Of a stretch of DNA of 64,000 bases, positions 27,001 to 36,000 are shown piece by piece; position 1 is the first letter of the stretch; every line of letters begins with the position of its first letter. A program made the position numbers. This stretch comes from Chloroflexota bacterium (GTDB lineage: Bacteria > Chloroflexota > Dehalococcoidia > Lucifugimonadales > JADFKI01). Location: assembly GCA_027623195.1 (NCBI GenBank), contig JAQBUT010000016.1, forward strand, positions 1 to 64,000, given 5' to 3'.

Positions 27001-30000
27001 TCCTGATCCACGCCCCAGGTCTGCTGGTGCAGAGGTATTGTGAGGCTGGGGTTCTGGGGCAGATTGCCGCTTTGCATTAACTCCACTCCAGGGCCCCCTT
27101 TTTCCAGGCATAAAGCCATCCAACAATGAGAATGCCTATGAAGACTACCATTTCCAACAGGGCGTAAATGCCGAAGCTCCGTGACATGTATCCGAAGCTG
27201 GCAGCCCAGGGGAACAGAAATGCCACTTCAACGTCGAAAACCACGAAAATCAAAGCGAAGCCGTAAAACCGGAAATTGAACTGGCTCCACCTGGTCGTGA
27301 GCGTCTCGAAGCCACATTCGTAAATGCTTGATTTAATAGCGCTGGGTACCCTTGGCCGGATGTTGGCCATGGATAACATCCACGACATCATCAGCATCCC
27401 TGTAGGAACTGCTACGGCCAGTGCGGCGAATATGGCTATGAGGCCATACTGCCGGAAGTAATCGTCAATCATTAATCCGCACTTGGGAAGGTCGAATTTA
27501 CCGCGCTGAATATAGCATAGTGCGTTAAAATATTGCAAGTGAAAAATTCCACAAATAAAAGCCCAGCAACGCCTTAACGAGCGGGCGGGAATAGCCGTTA
27601 ACTCCGGTAACGCCGTGTTGACAGTGCTGTAGCGGAATGCTAGGATTTGCCATCGTAATACTATGTAGTCCTGTCCAACCGTCTTGCAGGGCTTGTGTGA
27701 CGGCTGCAGGCTACCATTCCGGCAGGTTGCTTGAATGACCAAACCTTTGCTAAATACACCTGATAAGCAGACTGACAGCCTCCCAGGCCTGTTCCTAAGG
27801 TATAGGGCGGAGATTGGGACTGCGTTACGTCAGGCTATTACCCCTCAGAACTCCTCTAAAGAAGCCATTGCCGTGTATGACATGTTGCGTTACTACATGG
27901 GCTGGGCCGACACGGAGGGCAATCCCATTGTGGCCACGGAGGGCAAGTACCTGCGCCCGACCCTTTGTCTTTTCGCATGCCAGGCCACGGGTGGTTCGAT
28001 TGAGCAGGCCATGCCGGCGGCAGTGGCGCTCGAGTTGATACACAACTTCTCACTTATTCATGACGACATTCAGGACCAGGACGAGACCCGCCACCACCGC
28101 AAAACGCTGTGGGCGGTCTGGGGCATTCCCAAAGCTCTGGTCGCCGGAAACGTCCTTAGAGTGGTCGCCGATTTTTCCTTGGAGGAGCTGATCCGACGCG
28201 GCGTGGACGCAGAGACCGCCCTGGGTGTGGCCAGTCTCCTCACCGAGGCGTATCTGGAGATGATTGAAGGTCAGTACCTGGACCTTTCTTTTGAGGGCCA
28301 GTCCGACCTGGGCATGCAGGACTACCTGGGCATGATCGCTCGTAAGACCGGAGCGCTGATCAGGTGCGCATTCACCATGGGCGCCCTCATTGGTTCGGGC
28401 GACAAGGCAACGGCAAACGCCTTCCGATCCAGCGGAGAGGCTCTGGGCTTCATCTTTCAGGTCCGAGACGACGTTTTGGGCGTCTGGGGTGACGAGAAGA
28501 CTACAGGCAAACCTGTAGGCGCTGACATCAGAAGAAAGAAAAATTCCTTTCCGGTCGTCCATGCTATGTCTCAAGCCAAGGGCGCTGAAAAGCAATCGCT
28601 TCTGGACATCTACAGGCAAGACGAGGTCGCCGAGGGAGATGTTGGCCGGGTGTTGGAGATAATGGATCGAGCGGAAACTCGCGGATGCGCCCACGAAATG
28701 GCGATGGAGCATGGCCAGGACGCGTCAGATGCTTTGGAGTCGGTGGAGCTTGAACCCAGTGCCCGAGCAGAAATTGAGGAGCTAATCCAGTTCTTAGTGG
28801 TGAGAGAACACTGATGGTTATCAGGTCAAGATTTGGGAGTGCGTGATGGGTAGACCTTTGGAACTAGCATTTAAAACCGGTTGGTACATTGTCAAGAATA
28901 AGATGATGGGAAGGAAACGCTTCCCCCTGGTTACGATGCTTGAGCCTTTGGAGAAGTGTAACCTCGCTTGCCTAGGCTGCGGTCGTATCCGCGAGTACGA
29001 ACGCGTGCTAGACCGAACGCTCTCCGTAGAACACTGCCTGGCGGCAGTGGAGGAATCAGGCGCGCCAATCGTGTCCATCGCCGGCGGAGAGCCGTCTCTA
29101 CACCCGCAGATAGACGAGATCGTGAAGGCCATCACGGCGAAGAAGAAGTTTGTATTCATGTGCACCAATGCCCTTTTAATGGAGCGCATGATGAAGAAGA
29201 TTCCCCCGTCCAAGTACTTTTGCTTCGTCGTTCACATGGACGGGATGGAAGAGGCCCACGATAAGTCTGTATATCGTAAAGGCGTTTTCCAGATCGCCAT
29301 GCGCGGAATACGCAAGGCGCTGGACGAGGGCTACCGTGTGACCACGAATACCACTGTATTCAACGGCGTTGACGAAGAAGACCTCGTAACGATGTTCAAG
29401 ATGCTCACGGACATGGGCATAGAGGGCTGCATGGTTTCTCCGGGTTACCAGTTCGACACGGTGCCTAATCAGAACCTGTTCATCTCCAGGCAGAATGCAC
29501 GTAAGGTTTTCAGGAACATCCTGGACCCAGCGCGAAACATCCGCTTCTACAACAACCCTCTTTATTTGGATTTCTTGAGAGGGGATCGGGAATATCAGTG
29601 CACCGCCTGGTCCAATCCTACGTATACAGTATTGGGTTGGCGCGAACCCTGCTACCTGCTGGGCGACCGACACACCCAGGACATCAACGACCTGTTCAGC
29701 GAGGAGATGTGGTCGGAGCGTTACGGAGTTGGTAACGACTCTCGCTGCGACAACTGCCTCATGCACTGCGGATTTGAATCTGCGTCGATTTTCGGCACCT
29801 TCGAAAGGCCAGCCGATGCGCTTCGTCTTCTGAAAAAGGGCGCGTTGCAAAACAGCGGTATCGGAACGGCTTAGGCCGAGAAATCAACTGAGTACAGGGG
29901 CATGCTGGCAATACTTGTAGCGTTCGAGCGAGAGATTAAGGACTACCTGCGTGCAGGGCAGTTCAGGTTGGTAGAGAAGGAAGACGCCTTTCGGTTTTAC

Positions 30001-33000: not shown

Positions 33001-36000
33001 ATACTACGGCAGCTATTGTGTTGCAGGAAAACGAACCCCTCCTGTTGCAAGACATGGCCAGCGCAATCGAGAGATTCGCCCCAAGAAACCAGCACTACAG
33101 GCACAACGACTTCGAGGTTCGTACCGTGCACATGCACGAGGACGAGTGCCCCAACGGCCACTCGCACTGCCAGCACCTGATTTTAGGCGCTAGCGAGAAC
33201 GTGCCCGTGGTGGATGGCAAACTCACGCTTGGCGAGTTCCAGCGGATATTCATGGTTGAGTTGGATGATCAGAGGGAATTTCGTCAGGTCTTGATTCAGG
33301 TAATGGGCGCCTAATTCGCCCCTGGCAACAAATGTAATTACGGGCCCGTTAATTCCCCGTTGATTCTTTGTAAACGCAGTCCCCGTCTAATGCGGGAGAC
33401 TCGGGGGGCGATATGGGCAATGAAGTAGAACAGGCCTACGACCACTGCCAGCAAATAGCCAAAGAACACGCTCGCAATTTCTATTACGCCTTCCGCACCT
33501 TGCCCGCCAGGAAGCGTAGGGCTATCTATGCGGCGTATGCATTTTGTCGGCTTTGTGACGATATCTCTGACGAAGACCTTCCTCCCGGTGAAAAGGACCG
33601 CCAATTCGCGGAAACTCGCCGACATCTGGCGGACTCCCGCGATGGCAGCGCCACCGAACCCGTCTTCCGCGCCATAAGCGACGCCTCCCACGCCTTTCAT
33701 ATCCCCTTCGATTATTACGAAGAGGTTATCGAGGGAGTGGAGATGGACCTGACCAAGACCCGCTTCGCAAATTTCGATGAGCTAAAAGAGTACTGCTACA
33801 AGGTCGCCTCTGTGGTGGGTCTCATCTGTATCGAGGTCTTCGGCTACGACGATGCTCAGGCCCGGGAATATGCGGTAGACATGGGCTTGGCGATGCAGCT
33901 CACCAACATTCTTCGGGACGTTAAAGAGGACGCGGAGCGCGACCGCATTTACCTGCCGCAGGACGATATGGCCCGTTTCGGTTACACGGAGCAGGACCTC
34001 ATGAACGGCGTTGTTAATGATTCTTTTCGAGCACTGATGGAATTCGAGGTTGGCCGCGCCAGGTCGTATTACGACAAGTCTCGGAAGCTCTTCCCGCTGA
34101 TTCATCCGGAGGCCAGGGTGTGTCCAAGCTTATTGCACGCCACGTATAGTAGGGTCCTTGACCGTATTGAGTCCTCCGGCTATAACGTTTTCGAGAGGCG
34201 CATCGGTCTTAGCAAACCGACGAAGCTTCTTCTGGTGGCGAAACTCTGGGCAGGCACGCTACTTCCCTCCGTGCCAAAACCTTCGCTCAAGAGGTAGGCG
34301 GCGCGCCACACGAATGTCCACCGACCACGCCCTGATCCTCGCGCCCTTTAGCGACAGCCAGCTTGCCCGATTGCGTCAAGAAATTCACGTCGCACACGAA
34401 AGCTGGATGAAGACTAGAAAGCTCTACGACCCCGACGAGTTGGCGCAACGCCTTTTGAAGGACGGCTCTTCAATTCTCGTGATCGAGTCGGACTTTGCCT
34501 TCGAGGAGACCTTCGCACAGGTGCCCGGTCTCAAGTTCGTCGGCATTTGTAGGGCGGCAACAAATCATGTCGATCTTGAGGCGGCCTCTGAAAAAGGCAT
34601 AGTCGTCGTTAACACACCGGGACGCAATGCACGCGCCGTAGCCGAGCACACGTTAGGTCTCATGCTGGCGTTGGCACGGAAGATTCCTCAATCGCATAAC
34701 TACGTCAAAGAAGGCTCGTGGCAGGACCCAACGGAGCCTTACACCACCCTTCGCGGCATAGAGTTGCAGGGACGCGCGGTCGGTGTGATTGGTCTGGGCG
34801 CCATAGGCCTCATGGTTGCAGAGATATGTCACGCGCTGGGGATGGAGGTGCTGGGCTACGACCCCTACGCCGACCCCAATGTCTCCTACATAAAACAGGT
34901 GGAGTTGGATGAGCTTCTCAAGCAGGCTGACTTCATCGATGTGCATGTGCCGTTGACGCCGCAGACCCTGGGTACGTTGAATGCCGAACGGTTGGCTTTG
35001 GTGAAGCCGACAGCATATGTAATAAGCGCCTCCGACGCAGCGGTCTTCGAAGGGAAGGCATTGGCAGACGCTCTTATTGAAAAGCGCATAGCCGGCGCCG
35101 CTCTGGACGTCTTTGAGTCGCACCCTGTTTCGCCGCAGAACCCGTTGCTTGCGCTCGATAACGTAGTCCTCACCCCCCACATCGGAGGAGCCACCGAGGA
35201 GACAGTGGAGCGTCATTCCCGCATGATGACCGATGACATTCTGCGGTTCGTAAACGGCCAGAGCCCCCTTAACCTCGTGAACCCTGACGCCTGGCAGAAC
35301 AGGACGTGATGGCATGATTAAGGGACCTGTTCTGGTAATAGACGCCGGCTCTAGCAGGCTGCGCTGCCACATTTTCGATGGTGAGGGCACAATAGTAGCC
35401 TCGTCTGCCACGGAATGGGCGTATCTGGAAGAGCCAGACGCTCCATCTATGGCCAGGTCATTCGACCCACAACAGTTGTGGGACGGTATTTGCCTGGCAA
35501 TTCGCCAGTGTGCTGCCGATGCCCCGACCAGCCTCGGAGTCGTGTCATGCATCGCGGTGACCAGTCAACGCCAGGGTGTCGTATTTCTGGACGCAGCCGG
35601 TAACGAAATCTACGCCGGACCGAACATGGACCTGCGAGCGGTCTTTGAAGGCGCGGCCATAGATGAGGAATTTCGGGAGCATGTCTACGGAGTAACGGGA
35701 CATCTGCCCTCATTCTTTTTCACGCCTGCCAAGCTGCGTTGGTTCCAGCAACAGCGGCCGAAAGCCTATGGTAGAATAGCCACCGTTTTGACTTTGGCCG
35801 ACTGGTTGGCGTGGCGGCTTACAGGCGTCGTCGCCAACGAAGTTACTCTGGCTGGCGAGGCCGGACTGCTGGATATCGGCAGTCGACAATGGTGCAACGG
35901 TCTGCTGCGGGAACTCGAACTGCCTGAACGGACCGGTCCTCTGGTGAAGTCCGGTGTTGTAGCCGGCAACGTATCTGGTCACGCTGCCAGCGCGACTGGC

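Follow-up and report, generated by a model that had tools for sequence, protein, structure and literature searches.

Hopanoids are sterol-like membrane lipids of bacteria and are among the main molecular fossils (oil fields), and their marine producers are only partly known. The locus analysed here raises the question of whether SAR202 bacteria, a widespread group of the ocean interior that has been proposed to oxidise sterols and hopanoids, may also make such lipids. Our main reading, to which we give a probability of roughly 0.8, is that the genes point to a functional route to C35 hopanoids in a Dehalococcoidia bacterium of the SAR202 type. The cluster would be old in the order and patchily lost, with HpnC and HpnE displaced in part of the order by a squalene synthase of the Sqs type.

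A hopanoid operon with a conserved cyclase active site

In the window, that is, the whole stretch of 64,000 nucleotides analysed, we found six open reading frames in one direction at 27735-34297, separated by gaps of 8-98 bases and encoding a prenyl synthase, HpnH, an HpnG-like phosphorylase, a squalene-hopene cyclase (SHC), YjbQ and HpnD (Table 1). The genome-wide survey's note had described these genes as a hopanoid operon encoding C35 synthesis. Its scores for SHC, HpnH and HpnD were reproduced with the NCBIfam models, as was HpnG as the best model, below cut-off, for the phosphorylase, and homology supports the proposed C35 product. The IdsA-like prenyl synthase scores below every equivalog cut-off in NCBIfam and is present at 33 of 39 related loci. 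The candidate promoter matches the consensus at 10 of 12 positions, and six such sites occur in the region compared with 7.7 expected by chance, so that its position is the sole argument for it. SHC and YjbQ are separate genes in the window, and none of the frames over 500 aa searched in loci L003-L140 fuses the two. Rfam gave no match anywhere in the window.

Table 1. Features of the hopanoid locus, with positions in the window except for the last row
Feature	Position	Strand	Evidence or remark
Candidate sigma-70 promoter	27618..27646	+	TTGACA-17-TAGGAT, extended -10 TG; ~90 bases upstream of first gene
Short-chain isoprenyl diphosphate synthase, IdsA-like (putative FPP/GGPP supply)	27735..28814	+	PF00348 207 bits; FARM FSLIHDDIQD
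HpnH, radical SAM adenosylhopane synthase	28843..29874	+	TIGR03470 429.2, cut-off 225.05
HpnG-like nucleoside phosphorylase, divergent	29902..30681	+	TIGR03468 74, below cut-off 187.1
Squalene-hopene cyclase HpnF/Shc, 700 aa	30690..32792	+	TIGR01507 786.7, cut-off 431.1
DXDD protonation motif D384-L-D386-D387	31839..31850	+	Aspartates invariant in 120/120 aligned cyclases
27-residue linker G614-G640	32529..32609	+	Separates the F601 and F605 equivalents; other bacteria have 2 residues there
YjbQ/UPF0047 protein	32838..33314	+	YjbQ model 110.3, cut-off 67.75; 26/39 related loci
HpnD, presqualene diphosphate synthase; neither HpnC nor HpnE found	33413..34297	+	TIGR03465 295.5, cut-off 278.6
D-2-hydroxyacid dehydrogenase-family protein	34314..35309	+	Start inferred at Met 16 bases past hpnD; 13/39 related loci
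FGGY carbohydrate kinase	35314..36822	+	86/103 SHC genomes, 18/98 others
Class II aldolase	36842..37528	+	Family match
121-aa protein, stand-alone HMG-CoA reductase N-terminal domain	37551..37916	+	PF25653 59 bits; 10/39 related loci
Extended SDR / NAD(P)-dependent epimerase-reductase	37916..38872	+	101/103 SHC genomes, 19/98 others in order
Nucleoside hydrolase, IU-NH family	38869..39756	+	Poor SHC tracking: 71/103, 46/98 others
Second squalene-synthase-like gene, Sqs-type	contig C35, 55311-56387	-	Motifs and distribution

The genome is a bin of 65 contigs, 87% complete and 4% contaminated, and the operon could in principle have come about by faulty binning or assembly, or through a recent stray transfer. 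This explanation is already refuted. Contigs from an estuary study that is separate from the possible source study cover the operon, one of them spanning 27827-33290 with 26 differences; together with a read depth covering 30 of 30 bins in all four runs, they indicate that no assembly chimera is involved. Furthermore, the GC content of the operon (0.52-0.56) is inside the range of the window, SHC is found in both genus mates at 79-84% identity, and the gene is common in the order (see below).

Among the cyclase models SHC scores best for the window's protein, ahead of OSC (235, cut-off 851) and tetrahymanol synthase (190, cut-off 500), and its DXDD motif, previously described as intact, indeed is, as DLDD. 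Upon examining 22 active-site positions, taken from the literature and with residue numbering verified on the alignment, we found 21 identical to the Alicyclobacillus reference; the exception, Y420, is F in the window's protein and in all 120 cyclases aligned. The predicted structure (pLDDT 89.8) has the two alpha-barrel fold of 2SQC, with a target-normalised TM of 0.97 and an rmsd of 1.9 Å. Compared with the SHC of Alicyclobacillus acidocaldarius (PDB 1SQC/2SQC/3SQC; 47-48% identity), the DXDD motif and the aromatic cage are common to both, whereas the window's enzyme carries Y420F, a 25-residue insertion between the F601 and F605 equivalents and a longer C-terminal tail of low confidence in the model.

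Distribution in the order and identity of the host

We examined 201 genomes of the order that are at least 80% complete, this genome included, and observed an SHC match in 109, over cut-off in 103, spread over 57 of the 104 genera sampled. HpnH is over cut-off in 105 genomes; the two occur together in 102, SHC by itself in one and HpnH by itself in three. The earlier estimate that about half of the order carries the genes thus holds on a separate sample. In a class-wide sample, SHC is over cut-off in 74 of 251 genomes, most of them in other orders, so that SAR202 is not alone in having the trait. The window's SHC sits in a clade of 43 rows (SH-aLRT 98) with all 15 included genomes of the order and two SAR202-titled records, and the SHCs of family-mates fall in three places of the tree, so that either paralogy or gene transfer inside the order has played a part.

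The host had been called a SAR202 bacterium, and SAR202-like it appears to be: the genome has 46 matches to PF00296 (luciferase-like monooxygenase) and 21 to PF13378 (enolase family), a paralogue expansion consistent with SAR202, and the nearest SHC records are titled Dehalococcoidia or SAR202, with two titled 'SAR202 cluster bacterium' grouping with the window's protein. The name Lucifugimonadales fits only if the wider order is meant. In PMC10444878 it denotes SAR202 group I, which has the fewest monooxygenases and an enolase expansion, whereas monooxygenases outnumber enolases by about 2:1 in this genome, which looks like group II/III in that sense.

An insertion beside the active site of the cyclase

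The 27-residue linker, set against two residues in other bacteria, amounts to an insertion of about 25 residues, which we report here as a mark of the order's SHCs. It is well conserved and, in the predicted structure, forms a loop that joins strand 609-612 to strand 641-645 (pLDDT 71-85). The SHCs of Bipolaricaulota and of other Dehalococcoidia orders, which form the nearest clades in the tree, do not have it, and with the insertion as a marker SAR202 shc could be counted directly in metagenomes and transcriptomes already available.

The insertion adjoins residues that shape ring closure, which we counted against a working pathway: 25 extra conserved residues at this place could alter the cyclase, so that its product is mixed or not a hopane, or its preferred substrate is a different one, leading to unusual triterpenoids. 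Such a failure has a precedent, as two of seven SHC-clade enzymes tested gave nothing from squalene in E. coli despite a DxD[D] motif (PMC12414744). We nonetheless consider an altered product very unlikely, with every cation-stabilising residue checked being kept, the model predicted to retain the strands on either side of the insertion as well as the fold as a whole, and HpnH, which acts on diploptene (PMC12583986), retained alongside SHC in 102 of the 103 SHC genomes.

Two near-exclusive predicted routes to squalene

Neither HpnC nor HpnE was found in this 87%-complete genome, leaving HpnD as the only member of the HpnCDE route; the HpnD gene itself reaches 197 on the HpnC model (cut-off 250), and HpnE was also not found in seven of seven family-mates. 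The best amine-oxidase-family protein (96.9, cut-off 283) was rejected as an HpnE candidate, being a PRK07233-family protein beside a lysylphosphatidylglycerol-synthase-like gene. The genome has two SQS_PSY genes in total, and the second squalene-synthase-like gene announced earlier on contig C35 was recovered there. Its product has an SRSF flap and the DTxxD and QxTNxxRD motifs, with no amine oxidase neighbour; among the 12 homologues shown, DTxxD is present in all and the exact SRSF pattern in four. SRSF and DTxxD are the signature of Sqs (PMC7306690). On the squalene synthase model TIGR01559 the protein scores 62.3 (cut-off 286.75), and we file it, by motif and distribution, as putatively Sqs-type.

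Across the 201 genomes, the Sqs-type protein is found in 62 and HpnE in 106, with an overlap of one compared with about 33 if the two were independent, although the genomes, as kin, are not independent samples; in the lone overlap genome the HpnE match is below cut-off. Among the 103 SHC genomes, 39 have Sqs, 62 have HpnE and three have neither, 100 thus having one route. The missing HpnC and HpnE, which the survey's note had conceded, are still missing, and the near-exclusive routes suggest that the Sqs-type synthase closes the gap. A squalene route without SHC over cut-off is found in 67 of the 201 genomes, indicating that squalene has other uses in the group. In relatives, full sets of HpnA, HpnC, HpnD and HpnE over cut-off lie within the same cluster; the best HpnA score in this genome is 183.9 (cut-off 367.65). 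These patterns would fit an hpn cluster that is old in the order and patchily lost, with Sqs having displaced HpnC and HpnE in part of it.

HpnD without HpnC or HpnE, together with a distant Sqs, is the combination of the HpnD + Sqs class (Santana-Molina et al. 2020, PMC7306690), for which Table S1 lists 13 Dehalococcoidia, six from order SAR202 and seven from UBA3495. What the 201 genomes add to that class is that Sqs and HpnE exclude one another almost completely, and the tie to SHC and HpnH.

The isoprenoid precursors IPP and DMAPP would come from the MEP pathway, of which the genes are seen in part. Searches of the genome, 87% complete, did not find DXR or IspG, which we read as a gap in the bin, because 38 of 41 relatives, including the two genus mates, have IspG and because IspD lies inside the window. 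A mevalonate route was rejected, as there is no HMG-CoA reductase match and the 121-aa protein matches the N-terminal domain only.

Side-chain steps and downstream genes

In the proposed pathway, the IdsA-like enzyme would supply farnesyl diphosphate, which the stand-alone Sqs-type synthase would turn into squalene, with HpnD of the operon perhaps contributing presqualene diphosphate. By strong homology, SHC would convert squalene to diploptene and HpnH, which has CxxxCxxC at residue 39 and a DUF3463 domain and shares the operon with shc, would add the 5'-deoxyadenosyl radical to form adenosylhopane. The divergent HpnG may then remove adenine, as its position and best model suggest, and the resulting ribosylhopane would most likely be reduced to bacteriohopanetetrol (BHT) by an enzyme that is not known from any organism so far and that PMC12583986 describes as not established.

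We file the phosphorylase as HpnG-like only, its score being below the HpnG cut-off. It has the PNP_UDP_1 fold, lies inside the hpn cluster and is present at 36 of 39 related loci. All eight orthologues scanned likewise score best on HpnG (74-124 bits), with none over cut-off. MTA/SAH nucleosidase models match too and, with a kinase-aldolase-nucleoside hydrolase block 3' of the operon whose kinase tracks SHC (phi 0.65), the low HpnG score would also fit a pathway that ends at adenosylhopane or C30 hopene, in which the phosphorylase salvages 5'-deoxyadenosine/MTA for HpnH and the downstream kinase, aldolase and hydrolase recycle the sugar. We judge this ending improbable: HpnG is the best model in nine of nine proteins scanned, the HpnG-like gene comes after hpnH at most loci, as in known clusters, and the kinase is absent from 17 of the 103 SHC genomes.

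Downstream, the dehydrogenase-family gene is probably on the operon transcript. We also observe, as a new finding and inside the order only, that the reductase-like SDR gene tracks SHC. At E<=1e-30 it was not found in SHC-rich families of other orders (f75 0/12, f77 0/13, f79 0/3) and is present in families without listed SHC matches (f88, f95, f97), which weakens it as a universal hopanoid enzyme. The neighbouring kinase tracks SHC too, so some of the signal comes from inherited linkage, and searches of the Atlas and PDB gave generic epimerase/SDR matches only. The SDR is thus a weak candidate for a side-chain step. The nucleoside hydrolase was rejected as a hopanoid enzyme (phi 0.22). Overall, the cluster supplies candidates (SDR, YjbQ) for steps without a known enzyme.

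Searches with their own models for the genes of methylated or composite hopanoids were confined to HpnI, HpnJ and HpnR. In this incomplete genome the best HpnI score is 27.7 (cut-off 310), and of three B12-binding matches the one in a radical-SAM-sized frame scores 54.5 for HpnJ (cut-off 577.6) and 35.5 for HpnR (cut-off 650); with none over cut-off, simple, unmethylated hopanoids would be expected. Compared with other bacterial hpn clusters (hpnCDE-shc-hpnG-hpnH in Alphaproteobacteria, PMC12583986), the operon likewise joins shc, hpnH, hpnD and an hpnG-like gene, and relatives add hpnA, hpnC and hpnE. It differs in its monoderm host, in having no hpnA, hpnC or hpnE, in its divergent HpnG, in the attached yjbQ and sugar-processing tail and in the want of HpnI, HpnJ and HpnR over cut-off. 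Bipolaricaulota loci share its gene order (idsA-hpnH-...-shc-yjbQ-two squalene-synthase-family genes).

SAR202 as a source of marine hopanoids

That SAR202 are unrecognised hopanoid makers proved overstated. The 2020 supplement already counted shc in 39 of 173 Dehalococcoidia and listed HpnD+Sqs in SAR202, and a 2025 alignment contains a protein named SAR202 squalene-hopene cyclase; what stands is that the main texts are silent, none of those searched naming SAR202 as hopanoid producers. It is plausible, judging from the genes, that an abundant SAR202 group is a source of hopanoids in water.

A working pathway could still leave SAR202 a minor contributor to the marine hopanoid pool, if the lineages with shc live mainly in brackish water, in sediment or with hosts, or if they express the genes weakly. 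This contests the ecology and not the operon, and we hold it to be a serious contender, somewhat short of even odds. The cultured-strain paper has no squalene or hopanoid term in its text or seven supplementary files, only crtB/crtI, and terpene clusters are reported in sponge SAR202. The six runs in which this DNA was found, from two studies, are aquatic and estuary metagenomes, with no RNA run listed among them, and do not show a dark-ocean source; about half of the order is without SHC. Against a minor role, SHC is spread over more than half of the genera sampled, and record titles in the SHC clade include ALOHA_A2.0_5, SP22 and OSU_TB47, which we take to be open-ocean bins. Moreover, in PMC12195314, where Chloroflexi are never mentioned, 13.29% of marine sqhC sequences have no assignment.

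A broader reading, tentative and as a whole rather unlikely, would make SAR202 major present-day producers of simple bacteriohopanepolyols, in sponges as well as in mesopelagic and deep waters; the proposed degraders of hopanoids would then also make them. Their shc, which the insertion would make countable in any metagenome, might account for some of the marine sqhC sequences without assignment, and the SDR would be the missing ribosylhopane reductase of the lineage. The biochemistry itself is ordinary: this is a known pathway with a new member and a testable ecological claim. If half of SAR202 make C35 hopanoids, source assignments of marine bacteriohopanetetrol would need a new term.

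Operon structure and support

We found that the hopanoid operon of G000, the genome under study, consists of six genes in one direction, with spacings of 8 to 98 bases, which encode a prenyl synthase, HpnH, an HpnG-like phosphorylase, squalene-hopene cyclase (SHC), YjbQ and HpnD; a nuo operon lies back to back with it on the opposite strand. The scores that the genome-wide survey's note had given for the operon were borne out by an NCBIfam search, with SHC at 786.7 (cut-off 431.1), HpnH at 429.2 (225.05) and HpnD at 295.5 (278.6). YjbQ scored 110.3 (67.75), HpnG remained under its cut-off at 74 (187.1), and the short-chain prenyl synthase fell under every equivalog cut-off. 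Because six further genes follow on the same strand with gaps below 25 bases, the twelve genes are probably transcribed together. The Suf-type operon that lies downstream could be a source of clusters for HpnH.

The DNA of the window was present in six runs from two studies, comprising aquatic metagenomes, one of them possibly the source of the genome, and estuary metagenomes, not the deep ocean. Contigs of the estuary study, which is not the possible source study, cover the operon, one of them corresponding to 27827-33290 with 26 differences. A glycosyltransferase family 20 gene elsewhere in the window would fit the production of osmolytes in brackish surroundings.

Features in the window (plain coordinates) and on other contigs
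Feature	Position	Strand	Description
Glycosyltransferase family 20	890-2485	+	trehalose- or glucosylglycerol-phosphate synthase type
nuo operon	~16830-27460	-	NADH dehydrogenase, upstream
Hopanoid operon	27735-34297	+	six genes
Downstream genes	up to 39756	+	dehydrogenase, FGGY kinase, class II aldolase, 121-aa protein, SDR, nucleoside hydrolase
121-aa protein	37551-37916	+	stand-alone
SDR	37916-38872	+	extended short-chain dehydrogenase/reductase
Suf-type operon	39902-46233	+	Fe-S assembly, downstream
IspD	61907-62644	+	MEP pathway, beside a PIN-domain gene
shc remnant	G174:C39:18053-18625		broken, in a compared genome
shc remnant	G079:C2:2333731-2333832		broken, in a compared genome
B12-binding radical SAM-like protein	L155:640-1965 (G000:C11)

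Cyclase residues, fold and insertion

The window SHC aligns with the Alicyclobacillus enzyme at E 2e-189. Among 22 positions that we take to be the reference residues of that enzyme, with the numbering checked on the alignment, 21 are identical, and Y420 is replaced by F, as in all 120 of 120 cyclases aligned. An AlphaFold2 model built on a 44-row alignment (pLDDT 89.8) superposes on 2SQC with a TM-score of 0.97 and an rmsd of 1.9 A. Besides Y420F, the window SHC differs from the Alicyclobacillus enzyme in an insertion of about 25 residues beside the F605 equivalent, where the linker from the GFP motif spans 27 residues versus the usual 2; in the predicted structure the insertion forms a loop (pLDDT 71-85) flanked by two retained strands.

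Across 44 cyclases from genomes of the order, the linker has 27 residues in 38 and 21 in one, the pattern missing 5. Among 37 cyclases from records titled Dehalococcoidia or Chloroflexota it has 26-27 residues in 25 and 2 in 10 (2 missed), and among 39 cyclases of other phyla 2 residues in 36 (3 missed). Furthermore, in the full-length over-cut-off matches listed for the sampled genomes of the order, the principal HMM alignment ends at model position 612-613 with two exceptions, while full-length matches from other orders within the class extend to 633-639. The insertion is thus a marker of the order.

Host identity and cyclase phylogeny

Luciferase-like monooxygenases account for 46 matches in the 3.0 Mb genome and the enolase family for 21, a pattern that PMC6946804 describes for SAR202 group II/III. 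We built a quick tree from 92 cyclases (the window, 15 from the order chosen from 43, and 76 named loci; insertion columns kept in). There the window SHC belongs to a 43-row clade (SH-aLRT 98) that also holds all 15 of the chosen cyclases of the order and two "SAR202 cluster bacterium" records. Transfer or paralogy within the order is likely, because the SHCs of family-mates occupy three separate places in the tree. Records titled Bipolaricaulota and Thermotogae (L074-L096, L108, L124) display nearly the same order of idsA, hpnH, shc, yjbQ and two squalene-synthase-family genes, and their SHCs nest among Dehalococcoidia, which hints at transfer.

Distribution across the order and class

When examining 201 genomes of the order that are at least 80% complete, we observe SHC over its cut-off in 103 (any match in 109), spread over 57 of 104 genera, HpnH over its cut-off in 105, and both together in 102. 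In the class sample SHC passes the cut-off in 74 of 251 genomes, and because just 8 of these belong to the studied order, the trait is not confined to SAR202. Divergent cyclases under the cut-off occur in G162, G191 and G210 and in the class genomes G241, G272, G327, G409 and G413; they are mostly second copies, several in frames of more than 1000 aa. The two broken shc remnants lie on contigs that still carry hpnE, and we read them as traces of recent cyclase loss.

We also counted cluster content in 39 of 80 named loci, chosen as Dehalococcoidia, SAR202, Chloroflexota or HR29, with gene identities assigned via representatives. The genes counted were HpnH (38 loci), a squalene-synthase-family gene (37), the phosphorylase (36), prenyl synthase (33), HpnA (30), YjbQ (26), the SDR (24) and HpnE (18).

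Squalene supply and precursors

A search of G000 found neither HpnC nor HpnE, although HpnD is present. The second squalene-synthase-like gene, on contig C35, scores low on every model (best 69.6), and its protein aligns with trypanosome squalene synthase (Sqs) across VSRSF, DTxxD and QMTNVLRD, DTxxD being the Sqs signature according to PMC7306690. Proteins of this type occur in 62 of the 201 order genomes (E<=1e-30) and HpnE in 106 (E<=1e-50), with an overlap of a single genome, whose HpnE match is under cut-off. One of the two routes is present in 100 of 103 SHC genomes. Displacement of HpnC/E by Sqs would be expected to leave such a distribution, although the genomes are related and the counts therefore not independent. 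A route without SHC over cut-off was observed in 67 genomes, in which squalene or a derivative may serve as a membrane component.

Regarding precursors, the MEP pathway was assigned to SAR202 in PMC6107057. IspD is encoded in the window, DXR, IspG and HMG-CoA reductase gave no match in the G000 bin, and IspG is found in 38 of 41 relatives. The 121-aa protein matches the N-terminal domain of HMG-CoA reductase only, and relatives keep it in the same place, flanked by the aldolase and SDR genes.

Candidate side-chain genes

HpnG is the best model for the phosphorylase in the window and in 8 of 8 orthologues, all of them under its cut-off, and in G000 none of HpnA, HpnI, HpnJ and HpnR exceeds its cut-off. 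The SDR occurs in 101 of 103 SHC genomes versus 19 of the 98 others (phi 0.80), and is retained in all 17 SHC genomes that do not have the neighbouring kinase. As controls, the kinase occurs in 86 of 103 versus 18 of 98 (phi 0.65) and the nucleoside hydrolase in 71 of 103 versus 46 of 98 (phi 0.22). Since the SDR tracks SHC and the enzyme reducing ribosylhopane to bacteriohopanetetrol is not established according to PMC12583986, the SDR is a candidate ribosylhopane reductase. Against this role, several SHC-rich families outside the order gave no match to it, and it occurs in families without a listed SHC. Separately, the B12-binding radical SAM-like protein has "lipid biosynthesis B12-binding/radical SAM protein" as its best model (206.5; cut-off 360), with CxxxCxxC not visible in its translation.

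Relation to earlier work

The gene content had been tabulated earlier, without interpretation in the texts examined. Table S2 of PMC7306690 lists shc in 39, hpnD in 52, hpnC in 42, hpnE in 41 and sqs in 18 of 173 Dehalococcoidia, and Table S1 groups genomes of SAR202, UBA1151 and UBA3495 according to their route to squalene; the accessible text names "Chloroflexi" alone. The available part of preprint 10.1101/2025.07.29.667474 reports low SHC conservation in Chloroflexota and does not mention SAR202, and that of PMC6306507 describes unnamed terpene clusters in sponge SAR202. Hopanoids appear solely as substrates in the available parts of PMC5395668 and PMC6946804, and hopanoid and squalene terms are absent from the accessible text and supplementary files of PMC10444878 and from the main text of PMC10284905. 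We found no proposal of SAR202 as hopanoid producers in the titles, opening lines of abstracts and passages covered by the literature search, whose scope excludes most subscription geochemistry journals.

Overall, judged from its genes, the C35 hopanoid pathway is ordinary and intact, and the lineage that carries it is abundant but little studied. Its prevalence, the exchange of HpnCE for Sqs in the 201-genome sample and the insertion as a diagnostic mark render the ecological question testable.
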